Sequence record: SRR22947725_578
Reading direction: 5' to 3' (one strand)
Length of the DNA: 37,644 nucleotides
Shown here: piece by piece, positions 19,064 through 23,267 of the stretch
How positions within the stretch are numbered: the stretch's first letter is position 1
Layout of the letters: each line of letters opens with the position of its first letter
Translations under genes and position numbers: made by a program
The notes under the pieces: model-generated
Databases searched by the model: none
Told to the model about the DNA's origin: nothing
Seen by the model: the letters and a program-made list of their open reading frames with translations, nothing else

Positions 19064-19924
19064 TTAAGCTACTCGTTTTAATAATAAAGATAATAAGTTT
19101 ACTAGTTTATCTTTAAGGTCTTTTCGATGAATAATTTGATCAATAAAACCATGATCAAGTAAAAATTCAGAACGTTGAAAACCATCTGGTAAAGTCTCTC
19201 CAACAGTATTTGCAATTACTCGTGGGCCTGCAAAACAGATTAAAGCTTTTGGTTCAGCAATAGTTACATCACCCAGCATAGCAAATGAAGCAGTAACTCC
19301 ACCTGAAGTAGGGTCGGTAAGAATAACAATATATGGCAACTTAGCATCTTTTACCATTTGAACTGCTATAGTAGTCTTTGGTAAAGCTTGAAGGCTTAGC
19401 TGATTTTCTTGCATTCTAGCACCTCCACTTGAGGTGATCATAATGAAAGGAGTATTATAAGAAATGGCATGTTCAGCTGCCTTAACCATTGCTTCGGCAC
19501 CAGCGGAAGACAAGCTTCCACCCATAAATTTAAAGTTCATTGCAACAACAGTTGTTGAAATACCTTTCATCTTTCCATAACCAATAAGAAAAGCATCTTG
19601 CATTTCAGTTTTAGCCTGGGCTTCTTTAAATTTTTCTTTATAGGAATTTGTATCTTTAAAATTTAGAGGATCTAGCTGGACAGTTGGGTAAGGTATTTCC
19701 TCATAAATACCTTCATCAAATAGATTTTTCATTCTGGTTCTAGGATGAATATACAAATGCAAATCACAATTTGGGCACACATAATAATTTTTTTCCAAAT
19801 CATCAGAGTACAGCATAGTTTGACATTGAGAACATTTGACCCAAGAGTTATCAGCAACTTTTAAGCTTTTTTTACCACCTAAAATAGATTTTATTTTTGG
19901 TGCTAATTTTGTTATCCAATTCAT
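19064..19924 (-). CDS. accD: Acetyl-CoA carboxylase carboxyltransferase beta subunit
   Basis: Cys4 zinc finger, FMGGS, SGGARMQE and GGVTASFA motifs. Confidence 0.96.
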   Translation of the reverse strand: MNWITKLAPKIKSILGGKKSLKVADNSWVKCSQCQTMLYSDDLEKNYYVCPNCDLHLYIHPRTRMKNLFDEGIYEEIPYPTVQLDPLNFKDTNSYKEKFKEAQAKTEMQDAFLIGYGKMKGISTTVVAMNFKFMGGSLSSAGAEAMVKAAEHAISYNTPFIMITSSGGARMQENQLSLQALPKTTIAVQMVKDAKLPYIVILTDPTSGGVTASFAMLGDVTIAEPKALICFAGPRVIANTVGETLPDGFQRSEFLLDHGFIDQIIHRKDLKDKLVNLLSLLLKRVA

Positions 19925-20751
19925 GAGTTTAGATTCTCAATCAATTCAGAACAAAAGTCTTCTACAAATTTAGCAATATTTTTTTTATCAGTATCTTTTT
20001 TTGAAACTTCTTGAATTTTTTCAACAATAGCTGAGCCAATAACCACACCATCAGCATTTGATTGAGAGAAGTTCTTTACATCTTCGACTGTCTTAATTCC
20101 AAATCCAGAGACTACAGGCAGATCTGTATATTTCTTAATTCTTAAAATTTGTGAATTAACTTTATCTATTTCTGCAGACTTAACACCAGTAATACCTGCA
20201 ACATTTACGCTATAAATAAAACCTTCTGCATCTTCTACTAATGTTTTAATTCTCGCATCAGAAGTTGTTGGAGTGATTAGTTTTATTAAAGCTATATTTT
20301 CATTTTTTAAAGCTTGTTTGAGCTGAGCTTCTTCTACAACATCAGCTGGTAAGTCGACGCATATAACAGCATCTATAATACCACTAACTTCTTTAGCAAA
20401 TTTTTCTATACCATATATAAAAATATTATTTAGATAGCCCATCATGACCAAGCCAATCTCTTGATTATATGCCCTCATTTCTTTTGCAATGCCAATAACC
20501 TTATCAAAATTAATTCCATTTTTGATGCTCTCAATATTTGCTAGTTGAATAATTGGACCATCAGCCTGTGCTTCAGCATGTGGAAAAGATATCTCATGAA
20601 TGTGCGCACCTGAATCTGCTATCGATTTCATTATCTCGAGACTAGTATCCTCATTTGGAAAACCAGCTGTAGTAAAACTTATGAAAGCTTTTTTATTTTC
20701 TAATTTTAAGTTTTTAAAAATGTTACTTATTCTATTTTCCAAGTTTATCAC
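19921..20751 (-). CDS. trpA: Tryptophan synthase alpha chain (divergent); start is GTG 20751 or TTG 20742
   Basis: E...ADGPIIQ, GITG, GFGI and ADGVVIGSAIV motifs; lies between trpB and accD. Confidence 0.9.
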   Translation of the reverse strand: MINLENRISNIFKNLKLENKKAFISFTTAGFPNEDTSLEIMKSIADSGAHIHEISFPHAEAQADGPIIQLANIESIKNGINFDKVIGIAKEMRAYNQEIGLVMMGYLNNIFIYGIEKFAKEVSGIIDAVICVDLPADVVEEAQLKQALKNENIALIKLITPTTSDARIKTLVEDAEGFIYSVNVAGITGVKSAEIDKVNSQILRIKKYTDLPVVSGFGIKTVEDVKNFSQSNADGVVIGSAIVEKIQEVSKKDTDKKNIAKFVEDFCSELIENLNS

Positions 20752-21943
20752 CTAACATTCTTTCAGCAGTATCAATATCCTTATCACCTCGACCACATAT
20801 ATTAATTACAACAATCTTATCTTTACTCATATCTTTAGCTAACTTTATTGCCTGTGCTATGGCAAAACTTGGCTCAAATGCTGGCAAAATGCCTTCTGAT
20901 TTACAAAGTAGCTGAAAGGCATCAAAGGCCTCTTCATCAGTTGCATAAGTGTAATTTACCCTGCCTATACTTTTAAGATATGAATGCTCTGGTCCACATG
21001 AATAAAAGTTAATGCCTGAAGCTAAGCTTTTAGTATCTAACGTTGCAGAACCATCATCTGATTGAAGCATAAAGGATTTAAAGCCTTGCATGATTCCTAC
21101 TGAGCCATTGGTTAGTGCAGAACTATGCTCTGCTTCTACACCATATAAAGCAACTTCATGATCATCTAAAAATTCGTGAATTGATCCAATTAAATTAGAA
21201 CCACCTCCAATGCACGCAACTATTGCATCAGGCAGTCTATTTTCTTTTTCTAAAATTTGTTTTTTAATCTCTTTTCCAATTATTGATTGTGCAAACTGTA
21301 CAATTTTTGGAAAAGGGTGAGGTCCAATAGCAGAACCACAACAATAAAATGCCTCTGGATCACTCGACCATGCCTTAAGTACAGACGTGCAGGCATCTTT
21401 GAGAACCCCTTTTTCTCCTGTACCATCGACACACTCAACAACTTCAGCACCAAATAATTTTGCCTTTAAAACATTGGTTGATTGCAGAAATATATCATCT
21501 TTACCCATATATCCAATTACAGGTAAATTAAATCTTGCTCCACAAGCAGCTGTGGCAATAAGGTGGGCGCCTGCACCTGTTTCACAGTATATTTTTGTTT
21601 TACCCATATACTTTGCTAAAAGTATTTGGAATAGTGAGTTATTTATTTTATGTGCACCTAAATGATTTAAATGGTCAGATTTTAAGTAAATTTTTGCACC
21701 ACCAATTTTCTTAGTTAATTGTTCGGCATAATAAAGTGGATTTGGTCGACCAACATACTCTTTAAGATAGTATTCAAATTCATCAATAAATTTTTTATCA
21801 TTAATTGCTGCATCAAAAGCTTCTTCTAGCTCTATTAGATTCGGCATTAATATTTCAGGAGCATATCTTCCACCAAAATCACCATAGTAACCCTTTTCGT
21901 TTGGCCCACTTCTTAATGAATTTTTTATTTCTTCAGTAGTCAT
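20732..21943 (-). CDS. trpB: Tryptophan synthase beta chain (TrpB1 type, divergent active site)
   Basis: FGGRY, GAHKINN (PLP Lys), ETGAG, GPHP, GGGSN, GPEH and GRGDKD motifs. Confidence 0.9.
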   Translation of the reverse strand: MTTEEIKNSLRSGPNEKGYYGDFGGRYAPEILMPNLIELEEAFDAAINDKKFIDEFEYYLKEYVGRPNPLYYAEQLTKKIGGAKIYLKSDHLNHLGAHKINNSLFQILLAKYMGKTKIYCETGAGAHLIATAACGARFNLPVIGYMGKDDIFLQSTNVLKAKLFGAEVVECVDGTGEKGVLKDACTSVLKAWSSDPEAFYCCGSAIGPHPFPKIVQFAQSIIGKEIKKQILEKENRLPDAIVACIGGGSNLIGSIHEFLDDHEVALYGVEAEHSSALTNGSVGIMQGFKSFMLQSDDGSATLDTKSLASGINFYSCGPEHSYLKSIGRVNYTYATDEEAFDAFQLLCKSEGILPAFEPSFAIAQAIKLAKDMSKDKIVVINICGRGDKDIDTAERMLGDKLGK

Positions 21944-22578
21944 TTAGTCTTAACCTTGTTGATAAAATCACTTATTTTGACTTTATCTTTTACTCCAGGA
22001 CTGCTTTCAACGCTAGAGGATACGTCAAAAAATGATGTAATATTGTTTTTTAGGGCTATTTCAAGGTTGTCTATATTTAACCCACCAGATAAAAAGAATT
22101 CTTTTTTAAGGTTTTGACCACCTAATAGGCTCCAATCAAATTTTTTTGCATTACCACCCGGCATTTCTGTCTCTTCAGGTTTTGCATCAAGCAAGAAATA
22201 ATCGCACAAATCGCTATAATCATTAACATTATTAAAATCAGCTTGAGTAGAAATACCAAAAGCCTTTATAATTTTTAATTGTGTATTTTTTTTGATTGCA
22301 CCTAAGTAACTAAGATCTTCAGATCCATGAAGCTGAATATAATTAAATCCAGAATCTTCTATTTCCTTAATATCATTGATATTTGCATTCACAGTCACAG
22401 CAACCGTGTCGATTGGTTTAGATAATTTAGAGATAATATCTTTACTGTCATGTAAGGATATGTTTCTAGGAGAGTGTTCATATGAGACAAAACCAAGATA
22501 ATCAGCGTCATTATCTATACAAAAATTAGCGATAGATAAATCTGTAATTCCACAGATTTTAATTTTATTAGGTTTCAT
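21940..22578 (-). CDS. trpF: Phosphoribosylanthranilate isomerase
   Basis: KICGIT, SPRN, QLHGSE, GG..FDW, LSGGL, DVSS.VE and PGVKD motifs. Confidence 0.94.
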   Translation of the reverse strand: MKPNKIKICGITDLSIANFCIDNDADYLGFVSYEHSPRNISLHDSKDIISKLSKPIDTVAVTVNANINDIKEIEDSGFNYIQLHGSEDLSYLGAIKKNTQLKIIKAFGISTQADFNNVNDYSDLCDYFLLDAKPEETEMPGGNAKKFDWSLLGGQNLKKEFFLSGGLNIDNLEIALKNNITSFFDVSSSVESSPGVKDKVKISDFINKVKTK

Positions 22579-23267
22579 TATAGTGATTGAAATATTTTTT
22601 GTGCTGCTTTAGCTGGATCTAAGGCTTTAGTGATTGGTCTGCCTATAACTAAAATGTCTGCGCCAGCTTCAACTGCCTCTTTAGCACTCATAGTTCTTTT
22701 TTGATCATTAGAATTATCTTCGTTATTTCTTATGCCTGGAACAATCAACTTTAAACTATCATTAATTTCTGATCTTATTATTTTAATTTCGTGTGGAGAA
22801 CAGACAATTCCGTCTAATTTATTTGCTACAGCTAATCTTGCAAGTTTAATGACTTGATCACTTAGTGAGCTATTTAACCCAACTTCCTTTATTCCATTTT
22901 CATCAAAACTTGTTAAAACAGTTACGCCGATTAATTTTGTTTTGCTTTTATTTGAGTCTCTAATATCAACACAATCTCTAAGCATTTCTGATCCACCGGA
23001 AATATGTAGAGTGGTTAATTCTGGTTCGGATGCTAGTATTCCCTGAAGTGCAGATTTAGTTGTATTAGGAATATCAAATAATTTAAGGTCTATAAACATG
23101 GGTAAACCCAGTTCTTTGATTTTGTTTACTCCCTCAATTCCACAGTGAGTATAAAATTCAAGTCCAAGTTTTATACCTCCAATAAAAGGTCTAATTTTTT
23201 CAATCAAAGCAATTGCTTGCTGGGTATCACTTGTATCTATAGCGCAGTAGATTGGATTATTGGTCAA
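22578..23267 (-). CDS. pyrF: Orotidine-5'-phosphate decarboxylase
   Basis: KLGLE, DLKLFDIPNT, VTVLTS, PGIR, DQKR and VIGRPIT motifs; TTG start. Confidence 0.95.
   Translation of the reverse strand: MTNNPIYCAIDTSDTQQAIALIEKIRPFIGGIKLGLEFYTHCGIEGVNKIKELGLPMFIDLKLFDIPNTTKSALQGILASEPELTTLHISGGSEMLRDCVDIRDSNKSKTKLIGVTVLTSFDENGIKEVGLNSSLSDQVIKLARLAVANKLDGIVCSPHEIKIIRSEINDSLKLIVPGIRNNEDNSNDQKRTMSAKEAVEAGADILVIGRPITKALDPAKAAQKIFQSL

Follow-up and report, generated by a model that had tools for sequence, protein, structure and literature searches.

A probable tryptophan synthase beta subunit with a remodeled closed-state latch, encoded on a trpB-trpA cassette of SAR11 bacteria

Introduction

Tryptophan synthase is the standard example of allosteric substrate channelling, and Gln114 together with the Arg141-Asp305 pair of its beta subunit is central to the model for closure of the beta site. 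In Salmonella TrpB, according to the passages of PMC9512447 on which we draw here, the Arg141-Asp305 salt bridge stabilizes the closed (R) beta conformation, and Gln114 stabilizes the closed state via hydrogen bonds to Asn145 and Arg148. The same passages describe Glu109 as a residue of the catalytic site, assign Phe306 and His115 to the indole sub-site, and give the carbonyls of residues 231, 232, 268, 304, 306 and 308 as the boundary of the cation cavity. The substitutions Q114A, R141A or D305A are reported there to shift the intermediates toward the open external aldimine and to alter specificity without abolishing the chemistry. Here we analyze trpB in a DNA stretch of 37,644 nucleotides from sequence record SRR22947725_578 (the window), where an intact open reading frame (ORF) of 403 amino acids at positions 20732..21943, on the minus strand, encodes a TrpB in which all three of these latch residues are replaced.

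For SAR11, the available part of a 2008 study of trp genes from the Sargasso Sea (PMC2395257) places the TrpB of Pelagibacter ubique HTCC1062 in a 'distinct cluster', and argues that it is functional because it is the sole copy. The HTCC1062-like type is therefore already in print. The window TrpB belongs to a different type, which we call class B. No description of class B, of a related class C or of an exchange of trpBA cassettes in SAR11 was found in our searches of the published literature, and all three are apparently new. Among other sources of which part was available, PMC9300024 mentions pyruvate and glycine, and the preprint 'Pelagibacter, resolved' mentions tryptophan, in the text at hand, solely for the trpD-trpE gene order; the 'trpB motif' of PMC11109978 is, from the portion at hand, an RNA in Firmicutes and is unrelated.

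The reading that we favor, to which we give a probability of roughly 0.75, is that this ORF specifies the beta subunit of a functional tryptophan synthase from a SAR11 class not described before, with a rebuilt closed-state latch and carried on a co-adapted trpB-trpA cassette; its activity is predicted from sequence.

Results

The window TrpB has the fold and catalytic core of the family

The window protein scored 467.8 bits against TIGR00263, for which the equivalog cut-off is 392.45 (other class B members scored 460-468 bits), and contains the PALP domain of Pfam. Its closest PDB chain is 5ey5_B (E 2.8e-128), with Salmonella chains at ∼1e-104, and it is ∼45-50% identical to TrpB chains of the E. 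coli/Salmonella type. The structure prediction proposed in the initial annotation of this stretch gave a model with the TrpB fold: the AlphaFold2 model, built on a 35-sequence alignment, had a mean predicted local distance difference test (pLDDT) score of 91.1 and a predicted template modeling (pTM) score of 0.91, and in a Foldseek comparison with the PDB the best 50 matches were all TrpB, with TMq values of 0.89-0.93 (∼0.91 to TrpB structures) and root-mean-square deviations of 1.1-1.9 Å. Membership of TrpB2, which shares the PALP superfamily with the window protein, was rejected; the scores were 138.8 bits against TIGR01415 (cut-off 518.85) and 143.6 bits against NF009057 (cut-off 366), and PDB chains of TrpB2 matched only at E ∼1e-21.

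We compared residues in an alignment of 103 sequences, with E. coli K-12 TrpB, whose numbering equals that of the Salmonella protein, as the reference for positions. The residue table drawn from it omits the suspected chimeric singletons P0021, P0022 and P0024, the fragments P0023, P0025 and P0028, the partial loci L059, L071 and L072, L074 (a 31% partial match only) and the duplicate loci L001, L039, L043, L047 and L049. The window TrpB retains His86, Lys87, Glu109, Thr110, Gly111-Gly113, His115, Lys167, Gly232-Asn236, Glu350 and Arg379. The catalytic core was the same in 32/32 class B sequences (His86, Lys87, Glu109, Thr110, Gly111-113, His115, Phe306, GGGSN, Glu350 and Arg379). The likeness to canonical TrpB1 of Salmonella and E. 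coli thus extends from the fold and a profile score above the cut-off to the Lys87/His86 pair, Glu109, the Thr110-Gly113 loop, His115, GGGSN, Glu350 and Lys167, and to a trpF-trpB-trpA arrangement in which the catalytic residues of TrpA are intact. However, the TIGR00263 score of 468 bits compares with 634-648 bits for canonical SAR11 relatives, and the differences of class B from TrpB1 include Q114A, G116L, R141K/L, D305N, P307Y, L304I, H353F, R77S, D79H, H280Q and a deletion of residues 258-265.

Latch residues and cation-cavity loops are replaced throughout class B

The initial annotation had described a remodeled active site, and every TrpB difference from the consensus that it listed is present in the alignment of the window protein to E. 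coli TrpB. The segment around the pyridoxal phosphate (PLP) lysine, KSDHLNHLGAHK (21647..21682, minus strand, as for all features below), keeps His86 and Lys87 and carries R77S, E78D and D79H (the motif KSDHL), with Leu at residue 83. CETGAGAHL (21560..21586) contains the catalytic Glu109 and the substrate-carboxylate loop with Q114A and G116L, and DIFLQ (21482..21496) has Leu at the Arg141 latch position. The motif VLKDACTSV carries T165V, N171T, E172S and A173V. Directly after GVEA, at its junction with EHSS (21119..21142), eight residues corresponding to E. coli 258-265 are deleted; this site adjoins the cation-site residue 268, which is Ser here. The 300s loop, ASGINFYS (20999..21022), has S301A, A302S, L304I, D305N and P307Y and keeps Phe306. 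Finally, EPSFA (20861..20875) keeps Glu350 and carries S351P and the class-specific H353F, and NICGRGDKD carries L376I and S377C.

Most of these changes define the clade. Invariant in 32/32 class B sequences were Ser77, His79, Leu83, Ala114, Leu116, Thr171, Lys175, Cys188, Ser268, Met279, Gln280, Ile304, Asn305, Phe306, Tyr307 and Phe353. Ala114 with Leu116 is thus fixed in class B, whereas Gln114 with Gly116 was found in 34/34 canonical sequences of the table (class A, other Alphaproteobacteria and others) and in E. coli. Of the two partners of Gln114 in the canonical enzyme, Asn145 is kept in class B and residue 148 is Lys. The Arg141-Asp305 salt-bridge pair is not preserved: residue 305 is Asn in 32/32, and residue 141 is Lys in 26/32 and Leu in 6/32, including the window protein. 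The loss of Arg141 noted at the outset therefore holds for the whole clade, but Leu as its replacement does not. Two other listed changes, S351P and S377C, are lineage norms, as Pro351 and Cys377 occur in 6/6 SAR11 class A sequences and 6/7 other Alphaproteobacteria; we therefore place them outside the remodeling because they are the norm in canonical alphaproteobacterial TrpB.

The deletion of residues 258-265 was present in 32/32 class B sequences, 2/2 intermediates and 15/15 class C sequences, and in 0/53 others. Together with G/A268S, L304I and P307Y it changes the loops around the cation cavity, for which the ligands are backbone atoms, and AlphaFold2 confidence was lowest near this cavity (block means of 74-80, residues 301-320). 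Nearby, bulky hydrophobic residues (Leu83, Leu116, Leu237, Tyr307 and Phe353) have replaced several small or polar ones. Overall, 128 sites show a conservation of at least 90% among 35 canonical TrpB1 sequences, and class B alters 19 of them, far more than expected by chance.

Class B forms a conserved clade under purifying selection

The check proposed for the substitutions came out in favor of a conserved clade, and of one on which purifying selection is strong. Judged by its members, class B is a conserved clade within the Pelagibacteraceae (SAR11), and the substitutions are not private to the window. G001, the nearest genome that we compared, encodes a TrpB protein identical to that of the window, and at 80-100% identity the variant was found at 11 loci in 10 assemblies of a species-level genome collection, including single-cell genomes. 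It also occurs in 90%-identity protein clusters of up to 325, 298 and 203 members. The ratio of nonsynonymous to synonymous substitution rates (dN/dS, Nei-Gojobori) for the window trpB against five other class B genes was 0.026-0.068 in 5/5 pairs, lower than for pyrF (0.10-0.57) and trpF (0.08-0.51) in the same five pairs.

These results bear directly on the alternative that the variant is a decaying gene, or an artefact of assembly or sequencing, to which we attach a negligible probability. Three singletons that look chimeric (P0021, P0022 and P0024) mean that some assemblies of the trpB locus are unreliable; against an artefact stand the intact ORF and the recovery of the variant at 11 loci of 10 independent assemblies, and the large clusters, the low dN/dS and the 32/32 invariance of the class residues argue against decay as well. 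Substitutions confined to one genome, with dN/dS near 1, are thus not what we found, and decay of the class B trpB appears excluded despite the roughness of the dN/dS values.

The three singleton metagenome proteins read as transitions from class A to B (P0021), from B to A (P0022) and from C to B (P0024, with a garbled stretch), and either arose in assembly, as chimeras of SAR11 types that occur together, or reflect natural recombination inside trpB. In addition, locus L040 (NYYU01000013.1), titled 'Parcubacteria group bacterium', has SAR11-type ihfB-pyrF-trpF-trpB with a class B TrpB 84% identical to that of the window, and this contig is likely mis-binned or mislabelled.

Metatranscriptome contigs from four runs of four studies matched trpA-trpB at ≥95% identity, and one RNA-library contig of 1591 nt crosses the trpB/trpA junction. 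These contigs are consistent with expression of trpA-trpB; the gaps in their coverage of trpF have no significance.

TrpB is the sole copy in related genomes, and its pathway and alpha subunit are retained

The class B genomes G001, G003 and G005 each gave one match to the window TrpB at E≤0.001 and one match to TIGR00263, so neither the homology search nor the TIGR00263 model found a second TrpB, canonical or otherwise, in these three genomes. We extended the search to 301 Pelagibacterales genomes, namely G001 and 300 others of ≥80% completeness, among them the unpublished G092 and G292 as class-D-like rows on which none of our conclusions relies; 283 of the 301 had a match at E≤1e-40, exactly one apiece. 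The earlier suggestion to look for trpEGDC led to G005 (87% complete, TrpB 94% identical to that of the window), where trpE, trpG, trpD and trpC stand in a row, trpE being cut by the contig end, and where trpF-trpB-trpA is also present.

Three observations concern copy number elsewhere. The metagenome-assembled genome G019 has two class B copies on contigs with different flanks, C12 (L004/L047) and C10 (L036/L042), the two trpBA loci being 94% and 84% identical to that of the window; this bin probably mixes two populations, because the flanks belong to two genera. A second, distant PALP ORF stands beside class A or D in G008 (G008:C6:11965-13008), G011 (G011:C8:29772-30815) and G015 (G015:C16:14369-15412); these ORFs are given as 454-475 amino acids long and 31-32% identical to the window TrpB (E ∼1e-25), and none was seen in the class B genomes G001, G003 and G005. 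Finally, a class-D-like trpB match in G145 (G145:C1:154990-156171; genome 94% complete) has one in-frame TAA, which could be due to a pseudogene or to a sequencing error.

The cognate alpha subunit of the cassette, TrpA, is encoded at 19921..20751 and scored 209.7 bits against TIGR00262 (cut-off 102.35). Class B TrpA keeps Glu49, Asp60, Thr183, Gly184, Gly211, Gly213, Gly234 and Ser235 in 6/6 sequences. Its loop 2, which contacts the beta subunit's COMM domain, reads PHAEAQADGP, versus PFSDPMADGP, and TrpA loop 2 and beta helix 6 vary jointly by class. TrpA identity also tracks the TrpB class and not the flanks, whereas TrpF identity follows the flank phylogeny.

The conservation of the alpha subunit allows a second alternative to be weighed, namely an indole-salvage synthase in which most of the indole used by the beta subunit would come from outside and TrpA would act above all as its allosteric partner, as reported for the TrpBA of Chlamydia trachomatis. 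Alteration of both alpha loop 2 and the beta latch could weaken the control of channelling, and a catalytically impaired chlamydial TrpA is reported in the part of PMC8376405 available to us, but all six class B TrpA sequences retain the alpha residues Glu49, Asp60 and Thr183 along with the glycines and the serine that bind phosphate, and G005 has the upstream pathway in full. We consider indole salvage very unlikely.

The initial annotation had gone further in suggesting an altered amino acid donor, nucleophile or allostery, and possibly a novel beta-replacement activity. Its allosteric part is plausible, with Gln114, Arg141 and Asp305 replaced. It is unlikely, in contrast, that class B is a neofunctionalized beta-replacement enzyme with another donor (O-phosphoserine, O-acetylserine, threonine or cysteine) or another nucleophile, for which L-tryptophan would not be the main product, because TrpB is the sole copy in a complete pathway, Glu109, His115 and Phe306 are kept, TrpA is intact and co-inherited, and canonical trpBA lies at the same locus in sister genomes. 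Such an enzyme would fit the replacement of all three closed-state residues, the rebuilt cation-site loops and the changes at 19/128 canonical conserved sites, as well as the altered substrate specificity of the Salmonella Ala mutants at Arg141 and Asp305 (passages of PMC9512447). However, the only TrpB-like gene of the same-class genomes would then no longer serve mainly to make tryptophan, even though trpEGDC and trpF are retained; if tryptophan were not made, a genome of 1.2-1.3 Mb would have no use for those six genes. Nor would it account for a TrpA that has kept its catalytic residues and is always inherited with TrpB, for the canonical trpBA that fills the same slot in genus-mates, or for the 138.8 bits against the TrpB2 model, far under its cut-off. 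Synthesis of tryptophan is by far the most economical reading, because a genome of this size combines a single TrpB with the complete pathway and a TrpA that is intact.

At least four trpB-trpA types occupy one locus

In SAR11, trpB-trpA comes in at least four types that diverge deeply and exclude one another, all at the same position, i.e. pyrF-trpF-[trpB-trpA]-accD. Class A is canonical, nests within the Alphaproteobacteria and scores 634-648 bits against TIGR00263; class B is the window variant (460-468 bits); class C (402-405 bits) is the sister of class B with a support of 99 and shares with it the deletion and the loss of Asp305; and class D (399-405 bits), with changes including E109D, Q114Y, H115A and K167V, is the majority type. 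Among the matches listed from the 301 genomes, class B was rare (G001 and G005) and class A was found in two genomes, 19 genomes of another family matched at 52-57% and were class-C-like by identity range, and the remainder, at 36-41% identity, were class-D-like by the same measure.

Class C TrpB (e.g. P0035 and P0040, and the complete genomes G028, G030 and G040) lies at the same locus as class B and resembles it in the deletion of 258-265, the loss of Asp305, Arg77 and His353, aromatic and bulky side chains at 307 and 116, respectively, and H280Q, with 14 of the 19 class-B-specific sites in common. Unlike class B it retains Gln114 and Arg141; it also carries T110S, D305Q and Q142V, and is only 52-57% identical. 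Most members have an insertion near the N terminus of TrpB, of four residues and of the GEGENAMGG type. Class C TrpA (L005, L006 and L007) has Glu in place of the catalytic Asp at alpha-60, as does the TrpA of L020. Database records annotate class C TrpB as 'tryptophan synthase subunit beta [Candidatus Pelagibacter sp.]'.

Class D resembles the window TrpB in being a strongly remodeled sole copy. It differs in its 36-41% identity and in E109D, Q114Y, H115A, K167V, N236S and R379D, and keeps Arg141, Asp305 and segment 258-265, unlike the window protein. We rejected the window TrpB as a member of class D, since it has Glu109, Ala114, His115, Lys167, Asn236 and Arg379 and class D is a separate clade with a stem of 1.11. 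Class D (L012-L030, e.g. L028:1501-2682) is more remodeled than the window TrpB, with 37/128 canonical conserved sites changed and 399-405 bits against the cut-off of 392.45. Class D did not group with classes B and C in the TrpB tree, but this was a quick tree with long stems in which the deep placement of B/C and of D is not reliable. The otherwise conserved Phe9, Arg77, Gly93, Phe204 and Phe241 (E. coli positions) are replaced in all three divergent classes, which could reflect convergence, shared ancestry hidden by long branches or a SAR11-specific adaptation.

Evidence for repeated displacement of the cassette between conserved flanks

We compared the cassette with its neighbors. The genes on the minus strand run in the order cmk, rpsA, ihfB, pyrF, trpF, trpB, trpA, accD and folC. 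The 5' flank of the cassette is formed by the conserved pyrF (22578..23267) and by trpF (21940..22578), which is upstream in a split operon and outside the swapped cassette, and accD (19064..19924) forms the conserved 3' flank. The junctions are tight: pyrF and trpF share 1 nt, trpF and trpB overlap by 4 nt, and trpB and trpA overlap by 20 nt, provided that the GTG at 20751 serves as the trpA start. The window TrpF scored above the Pfam threshold (PRAI, PF00697; 134.3 bits) and slightly under that of the best NCBIfam equivalog, NF002295 (203.6 versus 216 bits). The description of the locus as a canonical trp operon is right in that trpF, trpB and trpA stand together, but the three belong to a split operon between pyrF and accD rather than to a complete trp operon.

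G004, of class A, and G005, of class B, belong to the genus of the window; they are equally related to it in pyrF, trpF and accD (69-83% identity) and differ sharply in the two genes that lie in between. The identity of G004 to the window is 69% for pyrF, 71% for trpF and 80% for accD, but 51% for TrpB and 43% for TrpA; for G005 the values are 71, 71 and 83% for the flanking genes, and 94% for TrpB and 84% for TrpA. Classes A, B and D also occur, one each, in three genomes of another genus that have near-identical flanks, with AccD 98% identical (A versus D), PyrF 93% identical (B versus D) and TrpB only 37-52% identical. Between genus-mates of unlike class, DNA similarity is lost no more than ∼50-75 nt from the trpB start and returns no more than ∼35 nt from the trpA end.

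For a pyrF+accD tree, 33 loci were used (duplicate loci and those lacking pyrF or accD, i.e. L040, L045, L046 and L048, being omitted); on it the class label takes seven changes where the minimum is three, and class B appears in at least three places. Forcing the class-B-bearing flanks together cost 714 log-likelihood units (approximately unbiased test, p 1e-82), for a group that was named only after the tree had been seen. This scatter of the types across the flank phylogeny indicates repeated displacement in situ, and on our reading trpB-trpA is a co-adapted 2-kb cassette that has been displaced several times.

The closest described process is xenologous gene displacement in situ within operons, in which, in the published account as far as it was available, one or two genes of an operon are swapped for distant homologues between orthologous flanks. 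Orthologous flanks, non-orthologous inner genes and conflict with the flank tree are all found at the SAR11 locus. It differs in that the swapped unit is exactly two interacting subunits, and in that at least four types occur in one bacterial order, up to three of them in one genus. No donor lineage outside SAR11 was found in a search of whole-library representatives; at 50% clustering, the sole full-length match above 50% identity was the class-C-like P0121 (57%).

Discussion

We propose that in class B TrpA would cleave indole-3-glycerol phosphate and that the beta site would condense indole with the PLP-bound aminoacrylate formed from L-serine. With the Arg141-Asp305 bridge and the hydrogen-bond network of Gln114 gone, the closed state would be held in another way, and the cation-cavity loops would have been rebuilt by the deletion before residue 268 and by Ile304, Asn305 and Tyr307. 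We infer that closure is stabilized differently in class B, possibly with dependence on another cation or another allosteric regime; the activity, serine as the donor and the rebuilt mode of closure are thus all putative.

Several points weigh against reading class B as a working tryptophan synthase. The activity of every class B protein is itself a prediction, and canonical behavior cannot be assumed in full, because each of Q114A, R141A and D305A has been reported to impair or shift the reaction at the beta site of the Salmonella enzyme (passages of PMC9512447). The sole-copy status and the presence of trpEGDC rest on relatives of the window and not on its own genome, and trpD and trpC were not seen in G001, which is 65% complete. 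The dS of the class B pairs is 0.9-2.8, i.e. near saturation, which makes the dN/dS values rough, and the RNA contigs are no proof of transcription because DNA may occur in such libraries. The comparison with a cultured strain is also indirect: the methods text of PMC5069961, in the part available, has HTCC1062 grown on glycine, glycine betaine, pyruvate, dimethylsulfoniopropionate and vitamins, and the salts and vitamins are itemised in supplement Table S1. Our grounds for taking class D as the HTCC1062-like type are its prevalence and its identity ranges, not the name, as HTCC1062 was absent by name among the 120 matches listed for class D, all of them 'Candidatus Pelagibacter sp.'

A broader proposal, which we find possible but doubtful, is that SAR11 keeps ancient, mutually incompatible trpB-trpA cassettes that are shuffled by homologous recombination at the trpF and accD flanks. 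Classes B and C, lacking the canonical latch and cation-dependent switch, would then work under another allosteric or ionic regime or with another donor specificity, and the types would be held by niche or balancing selection rather than being neutral.

If class B is, as we favor, a working synthase, then an ocean-abundant lineage under purifying selection that lacks all three latch residues would reveal an alternative way to run the allosteric switch, and class B would be a ready-made scaffold for the engineering of TrpB. More generally, an essential enzyme of two subunits exists in the most abundant marine bacteria in at least four versions, deeply diverged and all placed at a single locus. 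The alpha-beta pair, always exchanged together, would show cleanly, in a natural setting, how co-adapted subunits travel as one, and the trpB-trpA types offer a testable case for 'type'-level polymorphism of core metabolic genes within a genus.

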